Positions 11,401-55,586 of a DNA stretch of 64,000 bases are shown piece after piece. The notes below the pieces were generated by a model. It was not told the origin of the DNA and did not search any database. It worked only from the letters and a program-made list of their open reading frames with translations. The stretch covers positions 6,102-70,101 of the forward strand of contig CAZNIV010000002.1 of NCBI GenBank assembly GCA_964573235.1. Direction: 5' to 3'. Every line of letters starts with the position of its first letter. Within the stretch, counting starts at the first letter, position 1. Both the position numbers and the translations under genes were made by a program. The DNA is from an uncultured Gammaproteobacteria bacterium (GTDB lineage Bacteria > Patescibacteriota > Patescibacteriia > 2-01-FULL-39-33).

Positions 11401-14400
11401 ATGGGTTTCTAATTTTAAACAAATACCATATTCATGAAGCTTATCGGCCACAGACTGAGAAACAGCTCCGGTAGGAATCTGAGTGGCATCGGTGGTAGAG
11501 GAAATGTACGCTAGATAGGAAACTAAATTGTGATTTGTAATTGGCGCTAAATCAACCGCAGTCTGAATTAACTCGTCAGTAATATTAGACGCATCGCCAC
11601 ATTGGGCATCTTTATCGCTAGCACCATTATACTGCATTTTAGTACAAGGAGATCCAGACTCTACTCCAGTACTATTAGACTGTTTTAATTTAAAAGTAAC
11701 CAACTGATAACCTGTAGTTTCTGCGCCCTCCCAAGTATAATAAGTCTTAGCATCACTTGGCCCAATCGGTGCATTCTTTTGGCAAATACGCAAATTTGTA
11801 TAATATTCTTTAGATTCACCGCCAGCAACTAATTCATCAAGATTAGTAAATTCATCGCAACCAGCGTAGCTAGCAGAACAATATTTAGCTTTATTGTTAG
11901 CAATAAATTGAGTATAACGAGGGGATGAAAAAGCTGTTTGGCTTTGACGATAAACCTGATAACCATCACACTCCGAAGGACAAGAATCTATAGGCTTAAC
12001 TACTCCCGGAACTTCTGGATCACCATTTTTTGGTTCATAAAGCTTACAACCAACTTCACTTGGAATACAAACACCAGCATAATTCGAGCATTCGCTATTG
12101 CGCTTAATTAAGACATCATCCAACTCACCTTGAGTAGCCGGCCAAGAACCATTTGCACTGGCACTATAACAATTATAATACCAAGGCGCTTTTTTAAGAT
12201 AAGCTATGTCATTAGCCACAATAGTGGAAGGATCATAATCCTGATTAGTGATTGCTAATTTATACCCATCAGTGGTGGTGGTGACTAAACCACTCTGATG
12301 ACCATCGCCAACTCTAATAAACTGACTACAACCAGCCTGATTACTAGCACAAGTTTGAGCATCGCGATCAAAAAATTTGGTATTAGAAGTACTAGTAGTT
12401 ACTCCCAAATTTAAATAAATCTCATAACCACGACTAGTCCATTCCGCTATTTTAGAAGAAGTGGCGACCTTACAAGCAGAACCATTGTAGGGTATTCGAC
12501 ATTCTACTGTACCAATATTACAATCACCCTGCTGATCACATATTTTATTTAATGAATACCCTTGACTAGCCCCAAAATTAGAAGCATTCCATCGATCAAC
12601 ATTCACCTGGACCGAGGCCGTACAACCGCCAGAAATATTACACTTATTCAAAATATTATTAGTATCCGTATTCATCCAAGTAGCCACGCCCGACAAAATG
12701 CCTGTAGTAGTTGCTATGTTGTTATAATAATCACTATACCACTTACAACCAACATTATCAGCTGAACAATTTTGATAATCAAGGGTATTTTTCAAATAAG
12801 AAACGGCCACATCGCTACCTATCTGATAAGTTTGACAGGTATTATAAACTGGCTCGCACTTTGGCGCATCAAACTTCCAAACGCGCTTTTCGTTAGTACA
12901 ATAACCATAGGCTTGGCAACTACCATTAATATCTTCTTTAATACACTGTTGCTCATCACCACAATAATTATCACGACTAACGTTACCGCCCTGACTATTA
13001 GACATATCTGGGCCAAAGCCCTCACGACGACAAAATAGCTCTGGCGCCTTTAAGACCCAATACTGATCAATTAAACCAGAAAATTCCGATCCATCCTCAA
13101 ATTTATTTAATAAGTCACCCAAGGTATATGATTTACCAGTACCACCTTGTTCTACAATATATCTAGCCGCAATCTCCCAACCCACTGGAACAATGCGATA
13201 TTTACGAAGAATAATAATATTACGAAGAGTGAAAGCGGTTTGCGGATTAGTAACCTGATTAACATTTGGGGCAAAAATACGATTCTTAATAGAGTCAGGC
13301 AAATCGAAAAGTTGTTTTTTATCTCTAATCGCCTGAGCAAATTCCTGATCAATCACACAACCATCATAAGATGGGCGAGCTGGATCTATACAGCTTGCTA
13401 AGCGATTTAATAAATCATAAGGACCACCAACAGTAAAGGCTCCTTGTTTTAAATTTTGAAATTTAACTTCTGCATCGGCCTGACCACTAACGGCAGGCGC
13501 AGACTGAGAATTATATAATGGATTAGCGCTATAATTATAACTACGACCATAATCGGCATTTTTACTAAAAAAACCAGAAATTAAAGTCTTCACTAATTCT
13601 GATGTCAAAGTGTTTAAAAATGTTTCCACAAAATCAGCTGCCGTTCCACCAAGATACTGTGGTAAGGTCTGAGCCTTATCTATGCTCTGGCCCCACTGCT
13701 CTTTAATAAAACTTCCAGGGGTTAAGATGTTTTTAGCAACATCAGTAATACTCTTCCATCTACCATCCGTTATTGCGGTTAAAAAAACTTTCTTTTCCGC
13801 CGCCACCTGCCTATCGGCTACGCTGGTTTGAACAGTTAAGATAGAACCGATATCATTTTGATTTGGCTGAAAATATTCATAATAGCCCAAAGAAAAATTA
13901 GCATTATTAATGGCCGTGTCCCAATTTTTAATTGCCGTCGATAAAGAACATCTTGGTTTAGGTGGTTCTTTTACACCCAATATTGGCAAAAGATTCAACT
14001 TAATATTAAAATCTGGTTGACAAATATTAAAACCAGCGGCGCTCATAAATTTATCTACCATTTCACCCAAGGCATTATCAACAGCGTCTTGCATAATTTT
14101 ACTAGCATCTCTAGTATCATATTGTGCCTGCTGACCCTTACCACCAGATGCTACCCACTTGGCTGATTCATAAGCAATGGTTTTGGTTAACATGGATAAA
14201 CCAGACTTAAAAGCGCTCGCTATAGCATTTTTCCAAGCTTCATCTCTTGCTTTTTTTTGCAACTCCTTAGCCCAAACATTCAACTGCTCTTCATTAACCT
14301 CACCAGAGGAGTACATACTATTAGCCTTTAAACACTCCGCCTGAACGTCTAAATTGACCGAGTCCTTAACTACATTATACTTAGTAAGATTAATTAATCC

Positions 14401-14661
14401 CCCCGTACCTAATAGAAAAAAATCAGGGGCAAGATTAGATGTAATTACCCCCTTAGCAGCAGCGCCACCGGTGAGACAAGTCGCATAGGCAGCCGCCGCT
14501 TTTGCCTGTTCTGCTGAAGCTTCGGCTAATGTTATGGTGGATTCAATAGTATCCGCCCCACCATCTGCTCTAACTAGAAGGGAAAAAGAAAAGTTTAAAC
14601 CTAACAATAAAATAAAAATTAAACTTGGCCACCCACGCAAAAACCATTTTTTATTAACCAT
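5461..14661 (-). CDS. Giant secreted/cell-surface protein (3066 aa), very cysteine-rich, Asn/Ser/Thr/Gly-rich, no recognisable catalytic motif
   Basis: N-terminal signal peptide (MVNKKWFLRGWPSLIFILLLGLNFSFSLLVRA), several hundred Cys spaced as in disulfide-rich extracellular modules, single uninterrupted 9.2-kb ORF. Confidence 0.7.
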   Translation of the reverse strand: MVNKKWFLRGWPSLIFILLLGLNFSFSLLVRADGGADTIESTITLAEASAEQAKAAAAYATCLTGGAAAKGVITSNLAPDFFLLGTGGLINLTKYNVVKDSVNLDVQAECLKANSMYSSGEVNEEQLNVWAKELQKKARDEAWKNAIASAFKSGLSMLTKTIAYESAKWVASGGKGQQAQYDTRDASKIMQDAVDNALGEMVDKFMSAAGFNICQPDFNIKLNLLPILGVKEPPKPRCSLSTAIKNWDTAINNANFSLGYYEYFQPNQNDIGSILTVQTSVADRQVAAEKKVFLTAITDGRWKSITDVAKNILTPGSFIKEQWGQSIDKAQTLPQYLGGTAADFVETFLNTLTSELVKTLISGFFSKNADYGRSYNYSANPLYNSQSAPAVSGQADAEVKFQNLKQGAFTVGGPYDLLNRLASCIDPARPSYDGCVIDQEFAQAIRDKKQLFDLPDSIKNRIFAPNVNQVTNPQTAFTLRNIIILRKYRIVPVGWEIAARYIVEQGGTGKSYTLGDLLNKFEDGSEFSGLIDQYWVLKAPELFCRREGFGPDMSNSQGGNVSRDNYCGDEQQCIKEDINGSCQAYGYCTNEKRVWKFDAPKCEPVYNTCQTYQIGSDVAVSYLKNTLDYQNCSADNVGCKWYSDYYNNIATTTGILSGVATWMNTDTNNILNKCNISGGCTASVQVNVDRWNASNFGASQGYSLNKICDQQGDCNIGTVECRIPYNGSACKVATSSKIAEWTSRGYEIYLNLGVTTSTSNTKFFDRDAQTCASNQAGCSQFIRVGDGHQSGLVTTTTDGYKLAITNQDYDPSTIVANDIAYLKKAPWYYNCYSASANGSWPATQGELDDVLIKRNSECSNYAGVCIPSEVGCKLYEPKNGDPEVPGVVKPIDSCPSECDGYQVYRQSQTAFSSPRYTQFIANNKAKYCSASYAGCDEFTNLDELVAGGESKEYYTNLRICQKNAPIGPSDAKTYYTWEGAETTGYQLVTFKLKQSNSTGVESGSPCTKMQYNGASDKDAQCGDASNITDELIQTAVDLAPITNHNLVSYLAYISSTTDATQIPTGAVSQSVADKLHEYGICLKLETHGYNANGVDIAPNADCREFYDSNGDVYYRLLSKVIYVTDDCHPYRRTLTQDPSLTTQCAELNNENVSVTQCDCVSNNGFWSDEKECVYMAVPKMGQSCSASFVGCREYTGNLSNDINFLVNDNFDNSYSNWSGSNSNLSIVSTAVGGFSWFTKATTSKQVYVKRNHTYTLSFWAKGYPGGDNDHASSAGFDLESIKFSSASEQSDYFAKSQLQNISLNVPKVHIGNEWQRYDLGPVFVTFADDGWQDLTINPGATNSIGNDLYIDNITLKEVKGNVYVIENSWFTPNSCDNKLDDPTGTACANGRCNPGEMLGCQAYNNKTDNVDPIYLRSFTSLCRAEAVGCEAMIDTHNSNATSSESFGGTVATADSVSVVKDNLAFIVNDKKFSCLAENKGCSAYGQPVINNRNEVMGYSTVYIKNDPQTYSRSLCRAENLWCGEYATNNTYNYFKDPRQQVCEFKSLTTSSTPAWYRMGEDGLCDTSPYQTIGLGVVSEKLQPDQNMKWAGVCPSSQSSCTEFIDPLTNNYASLLYNGDFSQNLGDINRPDGWEINSIGFNYKKEVTHSFVTGIVSQDVNLIDDRLYSLSMLADGQVAIDVKCSEGSMRSPDGSMVISSDGSSASLNYNLIASSSVSGRLYARDTKNCTLLVGASGSVTDVKLTESGVYYNLSDQMTDSRASCQGMVDYRKGCVLLNDRGAVNYADNPSTRDRSYLIYDADYIENKNVGTSQAIAVNKANDDSSGLKSNVSANAVIKVQPDRQCASWLYCNTFEKGNVNDPNPVLGSSDQCLGLALCSALDGMGNCSLFVNNQNKISVYDKGLDINKTGYSMLGKQIPNASGKSSSTVLGYYPYHLMSQVGEDANIANSDFEYIYNADQPKPIGWKPGVDTAWTIDKFSVATSKTDRKEGIGYLKVNADGTVRSNPISVDGDNAYSFSAWINTSYLYPSPQAKVLISVNGRVIDTVSAGLPWQRISKPLPPEVYQNGGALYVSVQNCFATVGSGQNTKCMTIQQASTTVTTGCLDSNLDGQCDVSGYSLFDLISLKPILEAGKDVNNSNIYISRSCRLYPEGDSQACNYVKNGDMYNGWQGFCMVSDPNNPQICLQWWPVDKIKGDGEPYYFSKSFPLYYCAALEGDMHLVEHREVVLFNYTSKTIKSAWNSAAWYKWLGPPGLIYAGVNTVFFWHPSYTFPKVTALTGNLLDAVLGSPINNFEIEDKNYNPSGTLRQQCRGSGCGECPFGYFYHHDDEIKKAGLFKNGSVKTWDYCKPVLADLVKRDSIYTDANTSGWYEYNGDLQQIKKNDNSYFDEKEKGVQVYLKDVDGGTIMDYNKAVSSNNVGYCKYVEQVVDDAGNSKAWYSRLSAGDNFWLTNPGGVLNVRLLRNDLVPITINSGKYPFGSLVTPQSDYDPYMWDGGKPYTMGMGKGVTFGCDGDNCKRFGLCSISHTNCLAYGVVNSIILSGVQLQLGNSTNTIPRSSIGLGDLGCPTGEECYPFAALSPDTCLDNGTTCKIVATTNSIGESRELLKSIFARSYGEWEYKKIDRENMCVKDEGSDKTATRDSCTWPIVTNKITKWTCVGGFNDGFSSSTAFASTTCLSVNSVSNSCENWKTTTGKGICADFTDFSSLFYGTSSECFGLSQAEANKDCYGAFIDIRDGICMEDPYNPVKNYVCVGGPNDGIGCTTTPSSVLNSLVSCDSNVKCDNGVCDGGKFDGRECLGSTDIEKNNFCLLEYAEVKTVDKNCRYKTDPSGTIFDSGLPCSDSNDCDSSIIISGHCSRTISTACDYKGNSCSNVAGSWYHYGESTDSLNKFVWDLPTLNCVGNVRANDSSYCYIDPVVTSTNITLDGSNKNWAYEKQAVKLGFTVSVDSNQLPIQNYNINWGDSNSSSVSNVSMKDNRANPDAPYLMYHAYDYWKIKAENSKEASTANNIICSGDGQDALAESICGNKTIKPISSNESWCCVKINISVTDNWERTAEQTKGVYVIKQ

Positions 14662-17722: not shown

Positions 17723-18724
17723 TTATTTTTTTATCTTTTTAACTAACTGATATAAATTATACCAAAAAATTCCATAACCTGTCTCATACGCACCAACATA
17801 ATCAGTAAATTTGGCATTTTCCGCAAAGCCCTGTTTAAATCTAGTTACGCCCGGCCACTTAACTTCATCCACGCCCCAAAAATCATAATATTTTTTACCT
17901 TGGGCTTTAGCTTTTAAAATTGTTTGCCATTGCAACAAATAAGGCGCCATTTTTTGGCGATATTCATAATCAGAAGCCCCGTGTAAATACACACACCAAT
18001 CATTTAAATTAATCACCAAATTGGCCGTCACTACTTTATTATCAATTTTGGCCACTACTACTTCTAAAATATTTTTAACGGATAAAACAGCTACCATTTT
18101 TTGATAATATTCTCCGCCATGGGCCATAAATTCATCACGCTCAGCTGTTAATTTAATCAAGCGTAAAAAATCAGCCAAATATTCAGCGCCGGAATGAATA
18201 GTTACGCCACTCTTTTGCGCCACTTTAATATTGTAGCGGGTCTTAGCTTTCATTTGAGATAGAAGCGCCTCTTCGTTTAGCGTCAAATCCAAAATCAAAG
18301 TTTGTTTCGGTTGAATCATATTGATTTTTTTATAACCAAAATCAGTCAACTCTATGGCGTCTATAAACCAAGCCGGATCCAACCGCGTTAAGATAGCTTT
18401 TTCTTTTACTGCCAAAGATTTTAATTCCGCCAAAAAAAATTTTAGCACTTCCTTTTGTTTTTCTATTTCCAACCCCGCCAATAAGATTGGTCCGCGAGGA
18501 ATGTAAAAATAAGTTTTGCCAAAAACCAATGGATTAACTATTGCCTGAGCGACTAATACTATTTTATCTCCGTCCATCACGCCAATTCTAAAAACTTTTC
18601 GCCCTAAAGCGATTTGTAAATCTCCCCATGACGCATTTTGTAACAAACCAAAATCTCCAGCCTGAGTTTTTACAAACTCCTGCCACTGATTAAGCTCAGC
18701 ATCATTAAAATATTTAATCGTCAT
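17723..18724 (-). CDS. FemAB-family peptidoglycan interpeptide-bridge aminoacyltransferase-like protein
   Basis: YLHGASD...APYLLQWQTILKAKAQGKKYYDFWGV region matches the conserved FemAB/GNAT-like C-terminal motif. Confidence 0.6.
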   Translation of the reverse strand: MTIKYFNDAELNQWQEFVKTQAGDFGLLQNASWGDLQIALGRKVFRIGVMDGDKIVLVAQAIVNPLVFGKTYFYIPRGPILLAGLEIEKQKEVLKFFLAELKSLAVKEKAILTRLDPAWFIDAIELTDFGYKKINMIQPKQTLILDLTLNEEALLSQMKAKTRYNIKVAQKSGVTIHSGAEYLADFLRLIKLTAERDEFMAHGGEYYQKMVAVLSVKNILEVVVAKIDNKVVTANLVINLNDWCVYLHGASDYEYRQKMAPYLLQWQTILKAKAQGKKYYDFWGVDEVKWPGVTRFKQGFAENAKFTDYVGAYETGYGIFWYNLYQLVKKIKK

Positions 18725-21700
18725 TAAATTACAAAACTAATCAAACGCCCCGGTACAAAAATAATTTTCTTAATTTCCGCTCCAGCTAAATACTGTTTAA
18801 TCCGCTCATCTTTTTTAGCTGCTACCACCGCCTCTGCTTCAGAGATTTCTACCGGCAATTCTAACTTAGCACGCACCTTACCATTAACTTGAATGGCAAA
18901 TTGAGCCGTTTTCTTGCTTACCTTATTAACATCATAAACTGGCCACTTTTCTTGATTAATACTGGCCTTGTAGCCTAAATTCTGCCACAACTCTTCGGAT
19001 AAATGAGGCGCAAATGGCGACAACATCACCGCCTCTGCTTCAGAGATTTCTACCGGCAATTCTAACTTAGCACGCACCTTACCATTAACTTGAATGGCAA
19101 ATTGAGCCGTTTTCTTGCTTACCTTATTAACATCATAAACTGGCCACTTTTCTTGATTAATACTGGCCTTGTAGCCTAAATTCTGCCACAACTCTTCGGA
19201 TAAATGAGGCGCAAATGGCGACAACATCACCAAAAATTGTTCCGACATGTCTTTGGTAAACGCTTTTACCTCTTGAATGCGATTAACTAAAATCATCATC
19301 GTAGAAATAGCGGTATTAAAACCCATTGTTTCAACATCACTACCCACTTTCATCACGGTTTGATTAAACAAGATTTCTGTTTCTTCATCAACTTGTTCCA
19401 CGATTTTTATTTCACCACTAGTATACACCGCCCAAACTTTTTCTAAAAATCTCTTTAAACCTACCATGCCTTTAGTGCTCCAAGGCTTAGCATCTTCTAA
19501 TGGACCCATGAACATTTCATACAATCTAAAAACATCCGCGCCATATTCACGCAAAATATCATCAGGATTAACCACATTGCCACGCGACTTACTCATCTTC
19601 TCGCCATCTTCACCTAAAATCAAACCTTGATTAACTAATTTTACAAACGGTTCTTCTTGAGGTACATAACCTAAGTCAAATAACACCATGTTCCAGAATC
19701 TGGCATACAATAAATGTAACACCGCATGCTCGGCACCGCCCAAATAAACATCTACCGGCAACCAATATTTTAATTTTTCCGCCGAAGCAAATTCATTCGG
19801 ATTTTTAGAATCAATATAGCGCAACCAATACCAAGAAGATCCGGCCCATTGAGGCATAGTATTGGTTTCGCGCTGGGCCTTGCCACCACAAACTGGGCAT
19901 TTTACTTCTACCCATTCTTTAATGTTCACCAATGGTGATTCACCGGTACCTGATGGTTCATATTTTTCTACCATCGGCAAAGTTAATGGCAATTCGGATT
20001 CTGGTACTGGCACAATACCGGTATTTTTGCTACGCAAAACTAGCTCCAATAATTCTGGGGTAACTGGATTATTAAAATGACCAAAACCATGCCAAACTTT
20101 AAACATCCAACCAGCTGGAATATTCTCATGCGTCTTACGACTAATCCACGGATCATCGTCAGACAAAATAATATTTTTATCCTCCACTAAATTGCTCACT
20201 TTTTCCCAACTAAAATCTGTTTCCCAAATTTTCTTCAATGATTCAACGTCGGAATTTGGCCATTGCTCTTTAAGCCACTGCCAATCGCGCTCGTTACGCT
20301 CACCAATTGCCGAGGCAATCAAATAAACATGGCCGATTTTTTTATTCGCCTGCTCAATTAAATGTAACGCCGCCTTACTACCCAGACTGTGGCCAATAAC
20401 CACATCATTAGCGCCCATTTTTTGCATATAAGGCTCAAGCGCCTTTAACCAATCAGCTAAAACCGGGTGCTCGCTATTTGGCATATCAGGCGCAAATACC
20501 TCATAGCCATTCTTTTCTAATTCCTGCTTTAAATATGGAAACCAGTTATTACTACCATTGCCCTCAAAACCATGAATCAACAACGCTTTTTGTTTTTGTT
20601 TTTTGCAATAATCACAATGAATTAACGGCATCGGTTCACCCCAATAACGCTGGCGAGAAAATACCCAGTCACGCAATTTATAGTTAACTGCCATCTTGCC
20701 TAAGTTATTAGCTTCTAGCCAGGTAATCATTTTTTTGATGGCATCTTTAGGCAATAACCCATTTAAAAAATCAGAATTAACCATTTTACCAGAGTCAATA
20801 TCCGTAAAGGCTTCGTTGGTAATATCGCCACCGCTAATTACCTCAATAATTGGCAAATCAAATTTCTTCGCAAAAGCATAATCGCGTTCATCATGCGCCG
20901 GCACTGCCATAATCGCGCCCGTACCGTAAGTACTCAAAACATAATCCGAAATCCAAATAGGAATCTCGGTATCATTGACCGGATTAATCGCTTTTATACC
21001 CTCAAGTTCTACGCCAGTCTTATCTTTATTTAATTCTGTACGCTCTAAATCAGATTTATTTTTAGCTTCCGTCGCATACCTAGTTACTTCGGCAAAATTA
21101 GTAATTTTATCTTTTAATTTTTGCACTAATTCATGCTCTGGTGATAACACCATATAAGTCGCACCAAACAAAGTATCTGGGCGAGTGGTATAAACCACGA
21201 TATCAGCCAACTCATCACCATCTTGCGCTACTTTAAAAGTCACTTCGGCGCCTTCACTGCGACCAATCCAATTACGTTGCAAGGTTTTGATTGATTCCGG
21301 CCAATTCATTTGCTCTAAACCACTCAATAAGCGATCGGCATAAGCAGTAATGCGTAACATCCATTGGCGCAAGTTCTTTCTTTCTACGACCGTGCCACAA
21401 CGCTCACATTTGCCATTAACCACCTCTTCGTTGGCCAAGCCAGTTTTACAAGATGGGCAGAAATTAATTGGCACAAAAGCTTCATATGCCAAACCTTTTT
21501 TAAATAACTGTAAAAAAATCCATTGCGTCCATTTATAATATTCCGGATCGGTCGTATCTACTTCACGCTCCCAATCATAAGAAAAACCCAAACTCTTAAT
21601 TTGCTTTCTGAAAGTATTAACATTGCTTTGAGTAGTCACACTCGGATGTGTACCAGTTTTAATCGCATAATTTTCTGCTGGTAAACCAAAAGCGTCCCAA

Positions 21701-21936
21701 CCCATCGGATGTAAAACATTAAACCCCTTTAATCTCCAATAACGAGAAAAAATATCGGTCGCTGTATAACCTTCTGGATGACCAACATGCAAACCCATAC
21801 CTGATGGATAAGGAAACATATCCAAAATATATTTCTTGGGTTTGGTGGAAAAATCTTCAGCTTTAAAAGTTTTATTATCTTCCCAGAACTTCTGCCATTT
21901 TGGCTCAATTTCACTAGGGTTATACTTAGCGTTCAT
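18724..21936 (-). CDS. leuS: Leucine--tRNA ligase carrying a ~195-aa YdeN/RBBP9-like serine-hydrolase insertion and a duplicated 67-aa C-terminal segment
   Basis: HVGHPEGY (HIGH) motif, CP1 editing domain, KMSKS, C-terminal domain. Insert runs from about 20020 to 20604; tandem duplication at 18826..19227. Confidence 0.9.
18826..19227. repeat. Perfect tandem duplication, 2 x 201 bp, in frame inside the leuS 3' region
   Basis: Unit 18826-19026 is identical to 19027-19227 in the displayed sequence; the protein shows [67 protein letters not shown] twice. Confidence 0.85.
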
Positions 21937-22110: not shown

Positions 22111-22491
22111 ATGTGTAAAAACGCACTTTTGTTTCTCTTTTCCCTGATTCTGATTTTTTCGTGGTTTTCTGCGGTAATTGCGACAAAAGTGATTCCGAGC
22201 CAATCCGGCACTGTCACTTTCGTTCAATCCAGCGACCACGAGCTGAAATTTACCCCGTATTTTCCCAAATCGGAGCGTGACCCTCAACCGTCACTCGCCG
22301 TTTTGCCAGAAGAACCGGTAAAAATCAACAAAATCAGACACCTTCCACCAAGCAAAATCGCGTACAAAGCGAAAACTTGGGCGGATGAAAACAGGGAAAT
22401 TCCAGGGTTTTTGACTCTGCCGGGCCCGGCACGCAACAAAGATCCGTGTTGCCAAGAGGCACGGAAACTTGTAGTCTCGACACGGACCTAG
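22111..22491 (+). CDS. Island A gene 1: secreted 126-aa protein of unknown function (GC-rich, foreign codon usage)
   Basis: Signal-peptide-like N-terminus MCKNALLFLFSLILIFSWFSAVIA; GGAAAGGA SD at 22092-22099; CTG/CCG/GCG-rich codons unlike flanking host genes; terminator follows. Confidence 0.5.
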   Translation: MCKNALLFLFSLILIFSWFSAVIATKVIPSQSGTVTFVQSSDHELKFTPYFPKSERDPQPSLAVLPEEPVKINKIRHLPPSKIAYKAKTWADENREIPGFLTLPGPARNKDPCCQEARKLVVSTRT

Positions 22492-22663: not shown

Positions 22664-22768
22664 ATGAAAGACCTCGTCTTTGTGCTGGCCGTCGGAGTGA
22701 TCTTCGTTTTCATCAAAATCATGAAAGTGCTCCTTGGTGAAAACAAGCAGGCGAAAAAACCCGCTTGA
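22664..22768 (+). CDS. Island A gene 2: 34-aa hydrophobic single-helix peptide MKDLVFVLAVGVIFVFIKIMKVLLGENKQAKKPA (type-I-toxin-like or small membrane peptide)
   Basis: GGAGGA SD at 22654-22659, 4 nt before the ATG; GC-rich codons; sits between the consensus promoter and the terminator. Confidence 0.55.
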   Translation: MKDLVFVLAVGVIFVFIKIMKVLLGENKQAKKPA

Positions 22769-26369: not shown

Positions 26370-26930
26370 TTATCTGGATTTAACGAGCAATTCTCCGGCT
26401 TTGATGGGTGGGTCTTCTTTGAGCCCTGCATCATGCCGAAAACGCCCATAAATATCAGTGACTTTGGCATCAGTGATATCACTCTGCCCACAACGCTGAC
26501 AGCGACTACTGGCATTTGCTAAATTAATAGCCATTTGCCAATAGCGCTCTTTACTTGCCTCCTCTTGTGCCGTTACCGCCCAAACCTTTTGGCGATTATA
26601 AACAACACAAGCAACAACCACGGCCAACATCATAGCGGTAAACGTCATGCCCACTAAGTGACGATGATGTCGCACCCAGCGCTTGGCTAACACCCAAGTG
26701 ACAACCGTCGGGTAAGCCACCATCAGAGTTAAGACTACCGGCCAAGCCAATAAGTCTTTAAACCGAATCAACGACTGGTTGCACTGAAGCTTTTTTTCGT
26801 TTTGCCGATGATTGCCCCAGCATTTTTGCATGTAATCCAGCTGAGTCGCGCTAACAATATGGTTATCTACGCGATCAGTTGGCACTGTGTCACTGCTCCA
26901 CGGGACAAAGGGGTGACAGATTTTCATCAT
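26370..26930 (-). CDS. Island B: 186-aa protein with two TM helices and a Cys/His-containing C-terminal domain, unknown function
   Basis: AAGGAGGA SD at 26945..26938, 7 nt before the ATG; GC-rich E. coli-like codons; TM segments WPVVLTLMVAYPTVVTWVL and LVGMTFTAMMLAVVVACVV. Confidence 0.55.
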   Translation of the reverse strand: MMKICHPFVPWSSDTVPTDRVDNHIVSATQLDYMQKCWGNHRQNEKKLQCNQSLIRFKDLLAWPVVLTLMVAYPTVVTWVLAKRWVRHHRHLVGMTFTAMMLAVVVACVVYNRQKVWAVTAQEEASKERYWQMAINLANASSRCQRCGQSDITDAKVTDIYGRFRHDAGLKEDPPIKAGELLVKSR

Positions 26931-28550: not shown

Positions 28551-29135
28551 TTATTTGACGCAGGAGAAATGAACACTGCCCGCGGTGTCCATGGAGATAC
28601 CCATGTGGTTGATCTCCTCCAACTTGTAGCAATCAGCCGTCCGGGAATGGGACGGGTTAATGGTGATCGAGCGATCCGGGTTGTCGAAAACATGGACAAA
28701 CTCGAACACTCGCTCCATGATCGCCTGGATGGCAACTTCCGCCTCCTTGCTCAGCTGAACGGGTTCACCGTCAGCAAAGTTCAGATACAGAAAGCTCATG
28801 TGATCTCCGGCCTTCTTGATGATGTTGGTGCCAATCAGGTTGAACCCGATCGCCTTCATCTCGGCCATAATGCGATCGAACGAAATCATCGTCCAACCCG
28901 TGGGCCCCCAACCAGTGCGGGGCTTGCCGGAATCAGCCTGGCGATTGCCGGCCGCGTCCGTGCGATTGCCACGGAACGCATCCTTGCCAAGCTGCTCGGC
29001 CTGAAACGCGTGATTCTCGATGATCTCGCGCTGTTTGGCCTGACTCAGCACGGCCTTGGCGATACCACCAACCTTGCGAAGCTCTTCAGCGGCGGAGTCG
29101 GCAATACGGACACGAATCAGAATTTTGGTAACCAT
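28551..29135 (-). CDS. Island C gene 1 (194 aa), unknown function
   Basis: AGGAGA SD; its own consensus promoter; strongly GC3-biased codons (ctg, cgt, gcc, ggc, atc, aag). The overlapping plus-strand 225-aa ORF is rejected. Confidence 0.65.
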   Translation of the reverse strand: MVTKILIRVRIADSAAEELRKVGGIAKAVLSQAKQREIIENHAFQAEQLGKDAFRGNRTDAAGNRQADSGKPRTGWGPTGWTMISFDRIMAEMKAIGFNLIGTNIIKKAGDHMSFLYLNFADGEPVQLSKEAEVAIQAIMERVFEFVHVFDNPDRSITINPSHSRTADCYKLEEINHMGISMDTAGSVHFSCVK

Positions 29136-29334: not shown

Positions 29335-29820
29335 TTAGCCTCGATGACTCAGAACAATCTGGCCATCGATAACGTGCATATCCAAGTAAGCACGCTTTTT
29401 GACCGGGCAATCCAAGCGATTGCTCGAGCCAGTTAAACGCAACACGGTTAGTTCGGGCTGTTCCTTGACGGCAAACACCTCAGCCAGGTGGCGATATTCC
29501 ACTAATTGCCGACGCAATACATAACCCACCATCTCGGGAATGCCACTGCTTTTCTCTTCGCTTATATCCACGGCCAGCCAAAGACTTTTGCCATCGGCTC
29601 CCTTCCAGAACCAAAAAGTCTGGAGTTTTAGGTTACAACTATTAAGGGCGCTGATAGCTTCCCCAATAAAGATATTTTTCCGTCCGCCCATCTCCCAACC
29701 CTTGACCAAAACGCGGGTCTGAGTGGGAATGGGATTGACCGATTGTGGCACCAGACCAGAATCCAGCAACTTTCTTGCCAAGTCTGGTAACAGACACACT
29801 CTGATTTGAATTGTTTGCAT
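29335..29820 (-). CDS. Island C gene 2 (161 aa), unknown function
   Basis: AAGGAG SD 6 nt before the ATG; GC-rich codons; no dedicated promoter, sits downstream of an attenuator hairpin. Confidence 0.6.
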   Translation of the reverse strand: MQTIQIRVCLLPDLARKLLDSGLVPQSVNPIPTQTRVLVKGWEMGGRKNIFIGEAISALNSCNLKLQTFWFWKGADGKSLWLAVDISEEKSSGIPEMVGYVLRRQLVEYRHLAEVFAVKEQPELTVLRLTGSSNRLDCPVKKRAYLDMHVIDGQIVLSHRG

Positions 29821-29888: not shown

Positions 29889-30395
29889 CTAGCGACAGAT
29901 TATCTCCAACAGACCAGATGTATCGTCGCGACTGACCACAAAGGTGAACAAGTGGCCATCAAACTTGTGATCGGGAATGGGATTAGCCGCCTTGATTTGC
30001 ATTACCATGTCCGGATTTTCCGAATCATTCGCATTGCTAAAGGCGATAACACTTTCAAACACATGATCATTCAGCCAGTTGCGAATGAACTCCATCTGCA
30101 GGGGGCGTTTCGAGTTGCGACGAGTGAACTCCAACCGCAGATAACGCCGATGCGCTTCTTCGGTTAGTCCCACTTCGGTCAAGCGAAGCGCAACCGAGTC
30201 AACATCTTCCAGTAACCCCGCCAAACTGACACCATGGACGGTGTTCTTGGCGCCATTGATGCCGTGCTGGGTACCGACGAGACGCATCTTCGCCTTGTCG
30301 ACCGTAATGCCAATCTCTTGACAGCGATCATGCGCCGCCAAAGTAAGACCAACAAAGATAGTCAACACCTCTTCCTGCTCTCTTCTCTTTGGCAT
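29889..30395 (-). CDS. Island C gene 3 (168 aa), unknown function
   Basis: AAAGGGAGGAA SD 7 nt before the ATG; GC-rich codons. Confidence 0.6.
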   Translation of the reverse strand: MPKRREQEEVLTIFVGLTLAAHDRCQEIGITVDKAKMRLVGTQHGINGAKNTVHGVSLAGLLEDVDSVALRLTEVGLTEEAHRRYLRLEFTRRNSKRPLQMEFIRNWLNDHVFESVIAFSNANDSENPDMVMQIKAANPIPDHKFDGHLFTFVVSRDDTSGLLEIICR

Positions 30396-45913: not shown

Positions 45914-46201
45914 TCAGATATGGACCGCTACGGAGCGACCGTGAAGATGCTCCTCGCGCTTCTTGAACTCTTTGGCACACTTGTCATTGCAAACATGGCC
46001 GATATGCACGTCGATTGACCGCACCGGAATGCGGTAATGACCATGCGGATCCTTGTCGCTCAGCGGATTCAAGCACAGCAGACACTGTTCGGGGATCTCG
46101 ACCTGCGGCCGGTGATGCTCAGCCGAAATTTCCGGCGGAATCATCGTCGCAACATCGTCACCTTGAACACCCGCACCGCCCGTCCCTGTTGATCCTCCCA
46201 T
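45914..46201 (-). CDS. Island D: 95-aa Gly-rich N-terminus plus Cys/His-rich putative zinc-ribbon protein, unknown function
   Basis: AGGAGG SD 7 nt before the ATG; CxxC...HxH...HIGHVCNDKC pattern; GC-rich codons. Confidence 0.55.
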   Translation of the reverse strand: MGGSTGTGGAGVQGDDVATMIPPEISAEHHRPQVEIPEQCLLCLNPLSDKDPHGHYRIPVRSIDVHIGHVCNDKCAKEFKKREEHLHGRSVAVHI

Positions 46202-49201: not shown

Positions 49202-50155
49202 TCAATTCACACCGACCAAATCCTCTTTGTTTATCACAGCAATTTGCCAATTGTGACAAAACTTAAATTGAATGTCATTAGAGCAACAATTAAACTCCTC
49301 CATAATCAGGCGAATTACCACATTATGCGTTAACCGCATCAACGCATCCAAGCGGTTATTGCGACTGGAAAAAATATCCCAGTCTGTCGTCATCTGTTGA
49401 CGTCGCCAAATCTTCACTCCCTCCGCGCTATCCTCAACATTATCCGGCCAGTAATCCTGACGGACCTGATCGAAAAAATGTGTCAATGAATAGAGTTGCT
49501 TAATCGGCTCAGAAATAACCACTCCCAAAACCGAGTCACGCGAACTGGCCGCCGGAAACCGATCACCCAAAGAGCTTTTGATTTTTGAGCGACCGGTAAT
49601 GATTTCTTCTACACAACGGAAGTAATCATTTAGGAAATGATAGCCCGACCTAAACATCAGTGGCAATTGCTCATCGAAATCAGCGGCCACAATAACATGC
49701 CAGCCGTAGCAGATGTCCCACTCGCTGGCCGGATAAGCCAACAATGGGTGCTGAGAAATAATCGACTCATCAAACATGTCGGCAATGATATTCAAGCACT
49801 CATCTTCCGCCTTCAAAAAACTGAGAAACTCAAGCTTTTTTTCGGGCGGCAGAATAGCTGCGTGAGCGATATCAATCGGGCCACTGGGAACAATTCCCGC
49901 ATTCAAGCCATAATCGGCCACCATACAATCCTTCATGAAAAGCCGTTTTTGCCTTTCATAATATTTCTCCGCCAACTGGTAAAGATACCACCAGCGCTTT
50001 GGCCCATCGCCATTAACCACACCCCAAACTCGGCTATTTTCTTCCACCTCGTCTTCATTCGGCTCAATACCGGAAAACTTTCTGAGCGGAACCTTATCCT
50101 TAAAACCTAAGCGTAAAACTTCGCTCAAACGAAGGGGTTTCATTTTGTAGCTCAT
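49202..50155 (-). CDS. Island E gene 1 (317 aa), unknown function
   Basis: Start MSYKMKPLRL with AAGGAGGA SD 5 nt upstream; the track ORF is over-extended to 50212. GC-rich codons. Confidence 0.6.
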   Translation of the reverse strand: MSYKMKPLRLSEVLRLGFKDKVPLRKFSGIEPNEDEVEENSRVWGVVNGDGPKRWWYLYQLAEKYYERQKRLFMKDCMVADYGLNAGIVPSGPIDIAHAAILPPEKKLEFLSFLKAEDECLNIIADMFDESIISQHPLLAYPASEWDICYGWHVIVAADFDEQLPLMFRSGYHFLNDYFRCVEEIITGRSKIKSSLGDRFPAASSRDSVLGVVISEPIKQLYSLTHFFDQVRQDYWPDNVEDSAEGVKIWRRQQMTTDWDIFSSRNNRLDALMRLTHNVVIRLIMEEFNCCSNDIQFKFCHNWQIAVINKEDLVGVN

Positions 50156-50307: not shown

Positions 50308-51273
50308 TTAGTGGGCGAACTTTTTGATGGTAACCACTTGCCACCCTTGACGCAACCCAATAACTCTGGGGCAATTGGCACCGACGGCATCGCGCATCGC
50401 GATTTCGTTCAGGCCATTAACAAGATTGATCATCTCGTTGACTCTGGCAAACTGATCATCCAGAAACCGCGCCCGATCAACCGTTTGCTTGCCCATCCAA
50501 ACATCGAAGGCAAGTTTATTGTTTATGTTGTCGGGAACAATCCCGCTGGCATATTCTCCGATGCGCTCCAGCAACAGACACAGCCGCGGAATAATCGGAT
50601 CATCAACTTCGCAAAGCACCGTTTCTTCGTCGCCAACTGGCGGGAGATTAAAACCATGGGCTTTGGCGACAATCAGGTCGGAGCTATCAGAGAAAATCTC
50701 CGTCAGTCGAGCGAACAAATCGCCGACATACTCGCTCTTGGGAATGGGCTCATAATCCATTTTCCTGGCAACGGCAACACACCAGCCGTTAGTGATTTGC
50801 GGTATGGCTTCCTGGCAAGCCGTGATCGGGAATTCCGAGTGCACCGCCTCCCAAAAAAGAGCGCGCCACAATGAAGCCTGAGACCTGGCATGGATAACCG
50901 CCTCGTAAAGCTGTTTGGCCTTTGGATCGGTTTCAACGACACTCTTAACCTTGCCCGCCCCTTGACTCACCTCTTCCAGGTCAATCGCGAGCATCATCTG
51001 GTCTTGGGAAAATTGACACATCGTGATACCCTGACCAAAACCAGGAGCACCCGACATGTTCCGGCGGAGAAGCTCCACCAGTTCCTTGTGACCGTTATTC
51101 GCTTCGTCGATTTTCTTATCAACCAGCGCCAAAATGGCCTGGCCGATCGGATTTTTCATCGTACCGATCACGACACGACCATCTTCCAGTTCTCCATTCG
51201 GCTCAAAGCCAGAAACCGGTACTTGGCCAGAAAAAATCCGGCACAACAATTCACTCGTTCCGCGACGATTCAT
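50308..51273 (-). CDS. Island E gene 2 (321 aa), unknown function
   Basis: Start MNRRGTSELL with AAGGAGA SD 7 nt upstream; the track start at 51279 is a GTG. GC-rich codons. Confidence 0.6.
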   Translation of the reverse strand: MNRRGTSELLCRIFSGQVPVSGFEPNGELEDGRVVIGTMKNPIGQAILALVDKKIDEANNGHKELVELLRRNMSGAPGFGQGITMCQFSQDQMMLAIDLEEVSQGAGKVKSVVETDPKAKQLYEAVIHARSQASLWRALFWEAVHSEFPITACQEAIPQITNGWCVAVARKMDYEPIPKSEYVGDLFARLTEIFSDSSDLIVAKAHGFNLPPVGDEETVLCEVDDPIIPRLCLLLERIGEYASGIVPDNINNKLAFDVWMGKQTVDRARFLDDQFARVNEMINLVNGLNEIAMRDAVGANCPRVIGLRQGWQVVTIKKFAH

Positions 51274-52064: not shown

Positions 52065-53114
52065 ATGTCATTTTCTATCGGCATCGTCGGCTTACCAAAT
52101 GTGGGCAAATCCACTCTTTTTAAAGCTTTGACCAAAAAACAAGTAGACGCAGCTAATTATCCGTTCTGTACCATCGACCCAAACGTTGGCGTGGTAGCTG
52201 TACCCGATGAAAGATTGCGCCAATTATCCGAAATGGCTCATAGCGCTCGAACCATCCCGACCATTATTAATTTTGTGGATATTGCCGGATTGGTTAAAGG
52301 TGCTAGCGAGGGTCAAGGATTAGGAAATAAATTTTTATCTCATATCCGTGAAACTGATGCCATCGTTCAAGTCTTGCGTCATTTTTCTGATAAAAATATC
52401 ATTCATGTAGAAAATCGCGTTGACCCAGAAGCTGATAAAGATATTATCAACTTAGAGTTAATTTTAGCTGACATGCAAACTCTAGAAAAACGCATGAGCA
52501 CCAATGAAAAAATGGTACGCGCCAAAGATAAAGATGCTGTTAAACTACAAGGCATTTATGAAAAATTAAAAGCCGGTTTTGATGCTGGCAAACCGGGTCG
52601 CGAAATAATTACCGACGAAGAAGAAAAATTTCTATTAAAAGACTTAGCCCTTTTGACCATGAAGCCAATGATGTACGTACTAAATGTTGATGAAGATAAT
52701 GTTTTTCAAGAAACTGATTATATCGCTATTTCTGCCAAAATAGAATCTGAATTAGCTGAATTAAATGAAGCAGAAGCAAAAGAATATTTATCCGCCTTAC
52801 AATTAAAAGAATCTGGCTTAGATAAATTAATTCGCAAGGCTTATGAAACCCTAGGGCTCATTACTTATTTCACTACCGGCGAAGATGAAACTAAGGCTTG
52901 GACAATCAAAGTGGGTACTAAGGCACCTCAAGCTGCCGGTGTTATCCATACTGATTTTGAAAAAGGTTTTATTCGCGCAGAAACTATTTTCTGGAAAGAT
53001 TTAGTCGATGCTGGTGGCGAAGCCAAGGCTCGTGAAAAAGGCTTATTACGCTTAGAGGGTAAAGAATACGTTATGAAAGATGGCGACTGTTGTAATTTTA
53101 AGTTTAGCAATTAA
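52065..53114 (+). CDS. ychF: Ribosome-binding ATPase YchF
   Basis: GLPNVGKSTLF P-loop, TGS domain. Confidence 0.9.
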   Translation: MSFSIGIVGLPNVGKSTLFKALTKKQVDAANYPFCTIDPNVGVVAVPDERLRQLSEMAHSARTIPTIINFVDIAGLVKGASEGQGLGNKFLSHIRETDAIVQVLRHFSDKNIIHVENRVDPEADKDIINLELILADMQTLEKRMSTNEKMVRAKDKDAVKLQGIYEKLKAGFDAGKPGREIITDEEEKFLLKDLALLTMKPMMYVLNVDEDNVFQETDYIAISAKIESELAELNEAEAKEYLSALQLKESGLDKLIRKAYETLGLITYFTTGEDETKAWTIKVGTKAPQAAGVIHTDFEKGFIRAETIFWKDLVDAGGEAKAREKGLLRLEGKEYVMKDGDCCNFKFSN

Positions 53115-53151
53115 AATTTTTGTGCTATAATAAAAGCATAATAAAACTTAT

Positions 53152-53304
53152 ATGCTATTTCAAGACGACACAAAGTTAAAAATGCTTTTTTGGCTCATTG
53201 TAGTAATGGCTATCACTATTGTAATTGGTGTTTGGGAGTTAGGACTAAAGCCCCTATACTATTTAATTATCAGTGTTGTTCAATTAAAATTTGGCGTTTA
53301 ATTT
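53152..53304 (+). CDS. Small 50-aa membrane protein (host, below the ORF-track threshold)
   Basis: MLFQDDTKLKMLFWLIVVMAITIVIGVWELGLKPLYYLIISVVQLKFGV; extended -10 tgcTATAAT upstream; host-type terminator at 53319-53345. Confidence 0.35.
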
Positions 53305-53377
53305 AAATTTTTATCTCCATCCCGCCCTACTGGCGGGATTTTTTGTGCCTAATTTAGATAAATTATACCTAAAGCTA

Positions 53378-53406
53378 TTGACAAATAGGCAAATATGTGC
53401 TATACT
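53378..53406 (+). promoter_or_regulatory. Promoter TTGACA-17-TATACT for island F, followed by a perfect 7-bp inverted repeat at the predicted +1 (53413-53427)
   Basis: TCGTCAC-a-GTGACGA lies right at the transcription start; about 148-nt 5'UTR with a GGCC-caaaa-GGCC hairpin before the SD. Confidence 0.55.
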
Positions 53407-53560
53407 CCAGAGTCGTCACAGTGACGATTTTAGATATAATTGTTCCTTTCATTTTTATTTGAAATTAACAAGCCGGGTGGTTTGTTGATGATAGGATAGG
53501 GGCATGTCGCCCGCAGTATCTGGAAAAGTAGGCCCAAAAGGCCAAAGGAGGAGAGTTCCC

Positions 53561-54343
53561 ATGAATACGACAAACACAAACCCCGCCACCGTCACCGTCG
53601 CCAAGGGATTGATCGAGTTCAACTCGACAGTCTTGGCAGGAATCGTTTTCCGCAAGGAAGACAAGCCGGCCATCAAAGAAGCAACCGAGAAAGTCGCCAA
53701 CGGGCAGTTTCTGGTTCCGCCGGACAACTCCGACGAGCTCCAGCAAATCGGCATCAGTGATGCCAGCCAGAGCGAGAATCTGCTCGAGTTGCAGAAGGAA
53801 CTCATCAAGCTGGTGAAAACTGGCAAAATGGGTCCGATATGCTTGACTCCGGCTGTTCCCCAGACCACCGTGACCGATGTTCGCATGGAAAACGGCGTAG
53901 TCAAGCGCGAGTTCCCCTCGCACTTGGGTCTGCCGGTTATCGTGGCACAGAACGGCCGCAAGGAGTTTCTCCAGCCCCGCTGGTGGTACATTGGTGCTGA
54001 GATCGGTACCGATCTCGTTCCCAGGTTCACCTGCTGGCAGTACGTCGCCACCCTCGACCGGGAAACTGGTCAGTGGTGCTGGAAGCCGGTTCTGGATGAT
54101 CGTGGCGAACATCGTTGCGCCATGGCAACCGGCGATCGGGTAAAACATTTGGTCGGAGCGAGCTGGAGCCATATGGACCACTTCGTGGTTCCGTTGGTGA
54201 ACAAAGCACGCGAATTGGCCAAGAAGGAAGCTAAGGCGAGCACCATTGTCGCCGCTGCCTTCACCCCGCCCAAGCCCCGGCCCCTCGGCACCATCGGCGA
54301 CGCCATGGCCGCCAAGTCCAAAGGCGCCCACCAGGCCGCCTAA
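53561..54343 (+). CDS. Island F (260 aa), unknown function
   Basis: AAGGAGGAGAG SD before ATG 53561 (the track start 53504 is in frame upstream); GC-rich codons; Ala/Lys/Pro-rich C-terminal tail. Confidence 0.6.
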   Translation: MNTTNTNPATVTVAKGLIEFNSTVLAGIVFRKEDKPAIKEATEKVANGQFLVPPDNSDELQQIGISDASQSENLLELQKELIKLVKTGKMGPICLTPAVPQTTVTDVRMENGVVKREFPSHLGLPVIVAQNGRKEFLQPRWWYIGAEIGTDLVPRFTCWQYVATLDRETGQWCWKPVLDDRGEHRCAMATGDRVKHLVGASWSHMDHFVVPLVNKARELAKKEAKASTIVAAAFTPPKPRPLGTIGDAMAAKSKGAHQAA

Positions 54344-54364
54344 ACCAAACAAACCACCCAAACC

Positions 54365-54442
54365 CAGCCGGGCCTACGAAAGTACGCCCGGCTGTTCAAT
54401 TTTTAAGCGAAACAAAAAACGGGCTTTCACCCGTTTTTTATA
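54365..54442 (+). terminator. Tandem double terminator after island F
   Basis: cagccggg...cccggctg (8-bp stem) followed by aaaacgggc-tttca-cccgtttttt. Confidence 0.65.
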
Positions 54443-54452
54443 TTTAGAACAA

Positions 54453-55586
54453 TTAAACTTTTTCAAAAATATGAATGCGTCTTTGCACTTTCTGCCCTTC
54501 ACGCTTATACAATAAAGTATTGTCATCAATACGCCTAAAACCCATTTCTTGCACTTCTTCGTCAATTTTAATGGCTACGCGACCTTCAGTTACTTGCCAT
54601 TCAGGAAACACCATCACCACTTTGCCACCCGGATTTAAAATTTTAATAAATTCCTTAAATGCATCAACATAAAGCTTTAATAAATCATGAGCAATCTTTT
54701 GCGCTTCACGCAACTGAGGTACGCCACGCATTGGTGGCCCTAAAAATGGCTCAGTCACAATCGCCTGAATATTTTGCACCCGACTGCTAATCTGACGCAC
54801 ATCAGCGCTCAAAACTTCGTAATTAGCATCGGTTAAACCAAACTCATCTTTAACCCAAGCCAAATTAGTTAAAGTGTCTTTATAAGCGCGATCAGAAATA
54901 TCAGCACCAATCACTTTGCGATAACCCATAGCCATCGCTTCCATTAAAACTGTACCAGAACCGCAAAACGGATCCAAAATTGTATCATCATCATCTTCTA
55001 AGCAAGCTAAGTTGATCATCATCTTACAAAGTTTTGGTGGTAACATGCCGCTTTTAGCATCGGCCGCTGGGCGACCAAAATCTTTAAAACCATATTCTTC
55101 AAAATCCTGTACTGCCTCAGTTACCCCAAGGTAACCAGGGAACACCAAAAAGTCAGTCACTTTTTCTTTAGTTACAATAACTGAAGATAAAGTTTTTTGT
55201 TTACTCACTACTAAACGACTAGAAATATCTTTTTCTTTTAAAGCGTTTTTTACTTCCATACCAATCTTGCGATTTTCTGGCACACCGTAAAAACTAAAAC
55301 CAAATTTAGCCTTACCACCAATATTGCGCGTCATAATTTCTTCAACAATCACCGGCACCTCTAGGGTTTCGCCCAAAACTCGGCCAATCTTAATCGTGCC
55401 ACCTAATTGCTGAATTAAGCCTTTAGGTTCGATATTTTCAGTTTCTACCACTAAAAAATCTTTGCCCTCCGCTAATGACTTAACATTTGTTAAAACAGAA
55501 TAAATTTCGGCCTTAGATAACTCTGGATTATTGCCCAAAATAAAGATAAATTTCATAGTCTTACTTATTTCTAATGGCTTTATCAT
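54453..55586 (-). CDS. SAM-dependent RNA (m2G-type) methyltransferase, Trm11/RlmL-like
   Basis: DPFCGSGT motif I and EPFLGPP motif IV; N-terminal substrate-binding domain. Confidence 0.6.
   Translation of the reverse strand: MIKPLEISKTMKFIFILGNNPELSKAEIYSVLTNVKSLAEGKDFLVVETENIEPKGLIQQLGGTIKIGRVLGETLEVPVIVEEIMTRNIGGKAKFGFSFYGVPENRKIGMEVKNALKEKDISSRLVVSKQKTLSSVIVTKEKVTDFLVFPGYLGVTEAVQDFEEYGFKDFGRPAADAKSGMLPPKLCKMMINLACLEDDDDTILDPFCGSGTVLMEAMAMGYRKVIGADISDRAYKDTLTNLAWVKDEFGLTDANYEVLSADVRQISSRVQNIQAIVTEPFLGPPMRGVPQLREAQKIAHDLLKLYVDAFKEFIKILNPGGKVVMVFPEWQVTEGRVAIKIDEEVQEMGFRRIDDNTLLYKREGQKVQRRIHIFEKV

Follow-up and report, generated by a model that had tools for sequence, protein, structure and literature searches.

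Features of the F cassette

A GC-rich gene cassette, here named F, was studied in a 64,000-nucleotide stretch of contig CAZNIV010000002.1 (assembly GCA_964573235.1). This stretch, hereafter the window, has a GC content of 38.6% and represents one clonal population. The single open reading frame (ORF) of F encodes a protein of 260 amino acids that belongs to no recognised family. F is one of ten GC-rich orphan genes, which are distributed over seven sites from about 22 to 54 kb of the window. All ten are preceded by a strong Shine-Dalgarno (SD) core, which was found before none of 40 host genes, and this class-level pattern is the most informative result of the analysis. The coordinates of the cassette elements and of the ten genes are given in Table 1.

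Table 1. Elements of the F cassette and positions of the GC-rich island genes in the window
Feature	Position	Strand	Basis or remark
Sigma-70-type promoter P1	53378-53406	+	Predicted; TTGACA 53378-53383, 17-nt spacer with TG, TATACT 53401-53406
5' leader, ~148 nt	53412-53560	+	Starts at ~53412/53413; AT-rich to 53471, GC-rich from 53472
Palindrome TCGTCAC-a-GTGACGA at predicted +1	53413-53427	+	7 nt after the -10 box
Second promoter-like site TCGTCA-16-TATAAT	53413-53440	+	10/12 matches; overlaps the palindrome
GC-rich segment of foreign composition	53472-54397	+	~56% GC, window 38.6% GC
5' arm of the 12-nt complementarity, GGGTGGTTTGTT	53475-53486	+	Left edge of the GC-rich segment
Hairpin GGCC-caaaa-GGCC	53531-53543	+	1 nt upstream of the SD; present in the minimum-free-energy fold
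SD AAGGAGGAGAG	53545-53555	+	SD core; 9 nt from GGAGG to ATG
F coding sequence, 260 amino acids	53561-54343	+	Codon-position GC, SD, gene calls; GC-rich island gene
3' arm of the 12-nt complementarity, AACAAACCACCC	54348-54359	+	Inside a C/A-only tract that begins directly after the stop codon
Terminator hairpin T1 (CAGCCGGGC...GCCCGGCTG), then TTCAATTTTT	54365-54394	+	Predicted fold
Bidirectional terminator T2 (AAAAAACGGG-ctttca-CCCGTTTTTT)	54414-54439	.	Predicted fold
B1	22111-22491		GC-rich island gene
B2	22664-22768		GC-rich island gene; 34-amino-acid single-pass membrane peptide
C	26370-26930		GC-rich island gene
D1	28551-29135		GC-rich island gene
D2	29335-29820		GC-rich island gene; co-transcribed with D3 (predicted)
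D3	29889-30395		GC-rich island gene
X	45914-46201		GC-rich island gene; 95 amino acids, CxxC...CxxxC pattern (zinc-ribbon-like)
E2	49202-50155		GC-rich island gene
E1	50308-51273		GC-rich island gene

A first-pass annotation of this DNA had described a TTGACA-17-TATACT promoter, a perfect 7-bp inverted repeat at the predicted +1, a leader of about 148 nt with a small hairpin just before the SD, and the ORF with its start coordinate. All of these elements were recovered, and the pre-SD hairpin forms in the minimum-free-energy (MFE) fold of the leader. The putative promoter P1, the hexamers of which stand at the 16-18 nt spacing of sigma-70 promoters, agrees with the consensus at 11 of 12 positions, has in addition an extended -10 element and was the best promoter-like site within positions 52900-54700. 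The left half of the palindrome constitutes the -35 element of a second, inner promoter-like site, the use of which would cut the leader to ~114 nt. Downstream of the ORF, T1 and T2 were each predicted to form a GC-rich stem-loop followed by a U-tract, as intrinsic terminators do, and their joint fold gave z = -5.9. The T1 stem comprises 9+3 bp and is followed by an interrupted U-tract (UUCAAUUUUU), whereas T2 has a 10-bp stem followed by U6, with symmetrical A6/U6 tracts. Since T2 is symmetrical and its position is 14 nt past the stop codon of the methyltransferase gene that converges on F, it probably serves both genes. Hence, both hairpins of the tandem terminator ascribed earlier to F are present, but the second is best read as shared rather than as dedicated to F.

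The F ORF is coding. GC contents at the first, second and third codon positions are 0.586, 0.437 and 0.736 in the plus-strand frame, whereas GC at third positions (GC3) is ~0.30 in host genes. An ORF of 298 amino acids on the antisense strand (0.699/0.458/0.572) is the codon-opposite shadow of F, and this frame is open because F uses no TTA, CTA or TCA codon. The first-pass annotation had pointed out that a start at the in-frame ATG at 53504 would leave no separate untranslated region (UTR). The 19 codons from 53504 to 53561 have a GC3 of 0.42 and 47% A at third positions, as opposed to 0.74 and 12% inside the ORF. Furthermore, the spacing between the SD and the ATG at 53561 is the same as in the nine sister cassettes, and public gene calls give F a length of 260 amino acids. 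On the grounds of third-position composition, SD spacing and gene calls, translation was assigned to 53561, and the leader is a genuine untranslated one.

The ten GC-rich genes form a distinct set

GC3 ranged from 0.49 to 0.74 in the ten island genes and from 0.23 to 0.45 in the 40 host genes. A GGAGG or AGGAG core located at most 20 nt from the start codon was present in 10/10 island genes and in 0/40 host genes (Fisher p = 1e-10). The anti-SD duplex energies of the two groups did not overlap, the mean being -9.6 kcal/mol for the island genes and ~0 for the host genes, the upstream regions of which are A/T-rich and often carry a -10 box close to the ATG. Nine of the ten island genes, all but D2, have their own predicted near-consensus promoter of the TTGACA type, and each cassette unit ends in one or more predicted terminators.

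Several short motifs recur in these units. CAACCAA stands directly before the SD in five cassettes, and AGTCGT directly after the -10 box is common to F, B2 and E1. The motif TCGTACAT is depleted window-wide, yet four cassette leaders contain it (one mismatch being allowed), just past the -10 box. F is the most GC-rich member of the set, and its leader is the longest. CAACCAA is missing from this leader, and a similar C/A-only tract is found after the stop codon of F. A common layout was observed in sister cassettes that are unrelated to F: one hairpin stands at or close to +1, and a second, small GC hairpin precedes the SD, which is itself strong. Hairpins at or near the predicted 5' end were found in D1 and in its orthologue from another organism (contig L084, see below), and the counterparts of the pre-SD hairpin of F are GGGCA-ataa-TGCCC in D1 and GCTCGC-tacaa-GCGAGC in L084. 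A search of IMG/VR with the pattern TTGACA-N16-18-TATAAT-N3-9-GTCGTACAT returned one match in the AT-rich phage contig L085, which has no cassette downstream and was attributed to chance.

With the exception of E1 and E2 (E = 5e-5), the island proteins are unrelated to one another, and F is related to none of them. No match to F was obtained in Pfam, NCBIfam, PADLOC or PHROGs even at E <= 10, and nothing was found under E = 0.1 among PDB sequences. A word-based search of 5.8 billion clusters returned F itself alone, annotated as a hypothetical protein of an unclassified metagenome-assembled genome (MAG). An exhaustive phmmer search of 1.84 billion representative proteins returned F itself together with four weak matches (P0002-P0005); these are long repeat proteins that aligned to inconsistent parts of F, and they were rejected as repeat-summation artefacts. 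Searches with F by tblastn in phage, plasmid, IMG/VR and JGI metagenome DNA gave nothing, and neither did metagenome scans with F or with the alignment of D1 and its homologue P0007. Two minor hits were also obtained. One was a 42-nt AT-rich match over the terminator, the only one given by blastn and tblastn against phage and plasmid collections. The other was a match of the left-edge 19-mer in IMG/VR, located in a coding region of a phage contig of 60-68% GC (L086) that showed no further DNA or protein similarity; this match was put down to chance. The earlier statement that the protein belongs to no recognised family is therefore confirmed across all these collections. Likewise, no Pfam, NCBIfam or convincing PHROG match was found for the nine sister proteins, and the PADLOC defence hidden Markov models matched neither F nor eight other island proteins.

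The F protein is predicted to be soluble (28.5 kDa, isoelectric point 8.8) and has neither a signal peptide nor a membrane segment. It contains 4 Cys and 6 His residues and consists of an acidic, probably helical N-terminal third, a middle part containing Trp, Cys and His, and a basic tail; the Trp/Cys content and the Ala/Lys/Pro-rich tail correspond to what had been described. Our best guess for F is an accessory factor specific to its lineage, which may bind nucleic acids through its tail, and we would group it with lineage-specific accessory or 'conflict' genes, not with metabolic ones.

F is located at a variable junction between conserved genes

F sits between ychF and a gene for an RNA/DNA methyltransferase (54453-55586, minus strand), which are convergent, and its neighbourhood comprises ychF, RNase T, the methyltransferase, rpsF, ssb, rpsR, efp and recA. 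The scanned housekeeping genes of the window (leuS, uvrA, truD, a gene for a thiamine-pyrophosphate-enzyme (PFOR-like) subunit, glyA, folD, ychF, recA, rpsF-ssb-rpsR and efp) form a set that is typical for a streamlined Patescibacteria-like bacterium, and the nearest relatives of YchF, with ~60% identity, belong to Falkowbacteria and Patescibacteria. The arrangement of ychF with this methyltransferase gene behind it, on the opposite strand, recurs in six Patescibacteria-like loci. The stop codons of the two tail-to-tail genes are ~16-100 nt apart in four of these loci (L006, L013, L014 and L048). The junction of the window measures 1339 nt and holds an ORF for a 49-amino-acid membrane protein plus the F cassette. 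In L018 the insert is a HIT-family gene (6095-6487), and in L012 (6165-7226) it consists of a 253-amino-acid gene with helix-turn-helix and ATPase-like features plus a 96-amino-acid partner; both inserts have host-like composition and lack an SD. Because relatives hold different inserts at this place, the junction can be regarded as a variable spot. Few GC islands, and none with the architecture of F, were seen near ychF in other Patescibacteria loci.

Eight public contigs carry the F locus, all of them 99.9-100% identical to the window. A search for strain variants or an empty site, made with the exact YchF and methyltransferase proteins, found neither, every contig recovered being 100% identical to the window; that no empty site appeared is explained by the clonality of the contigs.

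The 49-amino-acid hydrophobic ORF between ychF and F (53152-53301) was seen in this organism only and has host-like composition, a -10 box of its own (TATAAT, 53126-53131) and its own terminator (53319-53339). With regard to assembly, several independent assemblies break in or beside the GC-rich islands E1 and F (at ~50822-50911, ~53270 and ~54477), and the fragmented NCBI MAG cuts several island genes into partial proteins. The GC-rich islands thus seem hard to assemble, owing either to coverage or GC bias or to strain variation. Positions 1-31 of one of the contigs (L001; ENA ERZ27300137, k141_1196984) are an untrimmed Nextera transposase adapter, GTCGGCAGCGTCAGATGTGTATAAGAGACAG.

A proposed moron-like cassette with generic expression elements

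Taken together, the data give somewhat better than even chances to the interpretation of F as an autonomous, moron-like accessory cassette of foreign composition, equipped with generic expression and stability elements. Most likely, the host sigma-70 RNA polymerase would transcribe F from the near-consensus promoter, and the palindrome at +1 would fold as a 5'-terminal hairpin of the mRNA, shielding it from decay that depends on the 5' end; the same palindrome may also, or instead, act as an operator. Translation would rely on the strong SD, kept accessible by the small upstream hairpin, unlike that of the SD-less host genes of the window. Such an SD would be needed for initiation on a GC-rich, structured message in an otherwise SD-less host. 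T1 would end the transcript, T2 acting as a shared bidirectional terminator, and the product would be a soluble protein with a beta-rich core and a basic tail. This retains the autonomous cassette and the novel protein of the first-pass annotation, whereas its suggestion of a riboswitch is not supported (see below).

Phage morons, as described by Hendrix and colleagues, are single genes with their own promoter and terminator, located between conserved prophage genes. F resembles them in consisting of one ORF between a predicted sigma-70 promoter and a predicted intrinsic terminator, in having a composition unlike that of its surroundings, in its precise insertion between two conserved genes and in its presumed accessory role. 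Unlike morons, F is flanked by chromosomal housekeeping genes and does not lie in a prophage. No PHROG matches were obtained, and about ten such units are scattered across 32 kb, with no phage gene among the Pfam-scanned proteins. Integron cassettes are also comparable, since they are small, mostly single-ORF units, often orphans, with a composition unlike that of the host and several per genome. However, no attC-like repeat is common to the 3' ends of the cassettes described here, no integrase was found among the Pfam-scanned proteins of the window, the units are scattered instead of forming an array, and a promoter of its own is predicted for each of nine genes out of the ten.

Stem-loops that stabilise the 5' end of messengers are known from the E. 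coli ompA 5'UTR (hp1), the B. subtilis aprE and ermC leaders and the cryIIIA STAB-SD. The 7-bp hairpin of F (dG -6.6 kcal/mol) likewise starts with nucleotide 1-2 of the predicted transcript and is followed by a strong SD, and F would seem to be a gene built for high or robust expression. It differs from those cases in that its DNA is also a perfect operator-like dyad and in that the start site is a predicted one.

Several points weigh against this interpretation. The promoter and both terminators, like the start of transcription, are predicted from consensus sequences. No integrase or transposase among the Pfam-scanned window proteins, and no att site or target duplication at the locus, was found that could explain the arrival of the cassette. 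The SD would not work as proposed if the 16S rRNA of the host lacks the anti-SD, as reported for about half of Parcubacteria (PMC9297842). Single-sequence AlphaFold2 models were too poor to be used for a fold search, with a pLDDT (predicted local distance difference test score) of 32 for the whole protein and 45 for residues 88-227, and the assignment of a function to F is a guess. Two further points, the nature of the palindrome and the composition of D1, are dealt with in the following section.

Alternative explanations

The position of the palindrome at +1 is equally classic for a repressor operator and for a 5' stabiliser. As an operator it would be bound by a dimeric repressor encoded elsewhere, the cassette staying silent until a signal is received, and this would be compatible with the moron-like reading. 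The perfect 15-bp dyad covers not only +1 but also the -35 element of the inner promoter-like site. The 64 kb contain about 35 distinct perfect 7+7 palindromes (spacer 0-3), or about one per 1.8 kb, so that one of them would fall within 10 nt of a given start site by chance in ~1% of cases; its landing at +1 is thus mildly unusual. In addition, dyads lie over the promoter or +1 of two sister cassettes (ACTTGTACAAGT in D1 and CTTAGTTAT...ATAACTAAG in D3/D2). Against an operator, the palindrome is unique in the window, where the next best sites have three mismatches, an adjacent regulator gene was not found, and the dyads of the other cassettes differ in sequence, which excludes the operator of a common regulon. 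We regard the operator as a possible role, though clearly a minority one.

A second alternative concerns the origin of the foreign composition, and it arises from D1. The single homologue of D1 is P0007 (42% identity), encoded on contig L084 (421-987) of another organism, where it forms an island of 57% GC in a background of ~23-43% GC. The architecture of this copy is like that of D1, with TTGACG-17-TATAAT, a GC hairpin, AAGGAGGG and two hairpins past the stop codon, and both copies face truD tail-to-tail at the same position. TruD identity between the two genomes is only 35%. Among 74 aligned identical degenerate amino acids of the D1 pair, 28 have identical codons, compared with 30 expected at full synonymous saturation. 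GC3 is 0.71 and 0.68 in the two cassette genes but 0.27 and 0.31 in the truD genes. Since the GC-richness of D1 has been kept across saturated synonymous sites, simple recent horizontal transfer is inadequate for the class and may be inadequate for F too, a further point against the reading given above. The composition of D1 seems to be maintained rather than decaying, an argument that rests on one orthologue pair. The cassette may have stood beside truD since a deep split, with its composition maintained, or an unsampled GC-rich pool may have supplied two copies that had long diverged and that were inserted independently at the same place. Neither of these is ordinary amelioration.

On this basis F could belong to an undescribed class of compositionally insulated cassettes of AT-rich, SD-less Patescibacteria, in which selection or biased conversion maintains GC-richness and the SD, and which would form a translationally separate gene set. 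A member of such a class would hold one gene, or a few in a short operon, and would combine a consensus promoter and a C/A-rich standby tract with a strong SD, a GC-rich coding region and terminators. Translation of the set would, for example, be confined to ribosomes whose anti-SD is free or to particular conditions. We consider this proposal unlikely as it stands, and put it forward tentatively. The SD-led gene in the autoregulation of Bacteroidetes rpsU is a ribosomal protein gene, whereas the SD-led genes described here are GC-rich orphans. What the two cases share is that ordinary genes are SD-less (0/40 in the window) and that a small minority has a strong SD. In Bacteroidetes, translation is SD-independent and the anti-SD is sequestered in the ribosome (PMC7797042). 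In Parcubacteria, the anti-SD motif was detected in only 48% of the 16S rRNAs (PMC9297842), a figure that sharpens the SD dichotomy; the 16S rRNA of the present organism lies outside the window.

F alone would be an orphan accessory gene from which little follows, and it is the pattern to which it belongs that matters. In this streamlined, AT-rich genome, genes appear to be expressed in two styles, one for ~40 SD-less housekeeping genes (GC3 ~0.3) and another for ~10 SD-led GC-rich orphans. If the latter were imported repeatedly from GC-rich, SD-using donors, this would be an unusually dense occurrence of tiny integrase-free insertions in a genome of the candidate phyla radiation. If instead their composition is maintained, as suggested by the D1 pair, selection on nucleotide composition or a separate translation channel would be implied.

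The two UTRs of F also share a perfect 12-nt complementarity, which had not been described earlier. A complementarity of this length was reached in 4/5000 shuffles of both UTRs, and the other eight cassette transcription units showed 4-7 nt at most. The pairing might join the ends of the mRNA, as in the 5'-3' UTR interactions of icaR or hbs, and thereby control its stability or translation, and the location of the 3' arm in an unstructured C/A-only tract, 5 nt past the stop codon, would suit this role. However, the 5' arm can form a local hairpin instead (AACAAGCC/GGUUUGUU), and does so in the MFE fold. The pairing leaves the SD untouched, it is a single example without conservation, and the repeat could be the relic of a DNA segment insertion. 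A function of this kind is therefore doubtful.

Read at the DNA level, the same 12-nt inverted repeat could mark the ends of a small mobile element, resembling a miniature inverted-repeat transposable element (MITE) or an insertion sequence (IS), that brought the ORF in. Its arms lie almost exactly at the edges of the GC-rich segment, and the junction is variable among relatives. Nevertheless, IS and MITE elements would be expected to leave a target-site duplication and to occur in further copies, and neither a duplication nor a second copy of the repeat in the window was found. No transposase was found among the Pfam-scanned proteins, F itself has no family match, T1 falls outside the repeat in spite of being GC-rich too, and no empty site was available among the clonal contigs. 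A mobile element of this type is accordingly very unlikely. The flanking direct repeats ATTTAGATAAATTATAC/ATTTAGAACAATTAAAC, which agree at 14/17 positions, were also considered and rejected as an att site, since by a rough estimate such a similarity is at chance level in AT-rich flanks.

The length of the leader had been taken as a hint of post-transcriptional regulation by a riboswitch, a thermosensor or a bound protein that would control translation of the ORF. It is indeed long for this genome (~148 nt, compared with 43-87 nt in the sister cassettes) and, as in riboswitches and RNA thermometers, hairpins are predicted beside the SD. The leader folds modestly better than shuffled sequences (MFE -47.6 kcal/mol, z = -2.78, an energy matched by 2/200 shuffles), and in this fold the GGAG of the SD pairs weakly with the UUCC directly before the AUG. 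On the other hand, this SD-masking helix has just 4 bp, and the first 60 nt of the leader are AT-rich and host-like and hold the second promoter-like site. The Rfam scan that had been proposed for the 5'UTR was performed. At gathering thresholds the sole match in the window was a tRNA, and at E <= 10 nothing fell inside the leader (53412-53560), the matches being located in flanking intergenic and terminator regions. The other copies of the locus are 99.9-100% identical, and no homologous leader was found that could show covariation. Moreover, since hairpin-plus-SD layouts precede unrelated ORFs as well, generic expression and stability elements fit these features better than a ligand sensor does. 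A cis-regulatory RNA is thus highly improbable, and a false lead is removed, there being no evidence for a new riboswitch at this place.

Finally, a GC-rich island in an AT-rich genome often turns out to be an RNA gene, both strands of the segment hold an open frame and the F coding sequence folds better than its synonymous shuffles (z = -3.65), but the idea that the ORF is spurious and the segment a structured non-coding RNA gene is scarcely tenable in view of the strong three-base periodicity in exactly one frame, the protein-like amino-acid composition, the correctly spaced strong SD, the lack of any Rfam match and the conservation of the sister cassette D1 at the protein level; excess mRNA structure was discarded as a signal, because the values for the host protein genes (S6, -4.2; EF-P, -2.7) are as negative as those for F and D1 (-3.7), so that the test does not discriminate.

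Other observations in the window

The leuS gene (18724-21936, minus strand) contains a perfect 201-nt tandem duplication at 18826-19231 (2.0 copies, 100% identity). The duplication lies in the 3' part of the gene, so that 67 amino acids of the C-terminal domain are repeated, and it represents either a very recent event or an assembly artefact. The leucyl-tRNA synthetase (LeuRS) also appears to bear an inserted alpha/beta-hydrolase-like segment (ALLIHGFEG...GHSLGS). An ORF of 3066 amino acids with host-like composition was located on the minus strand at 5461-14661.

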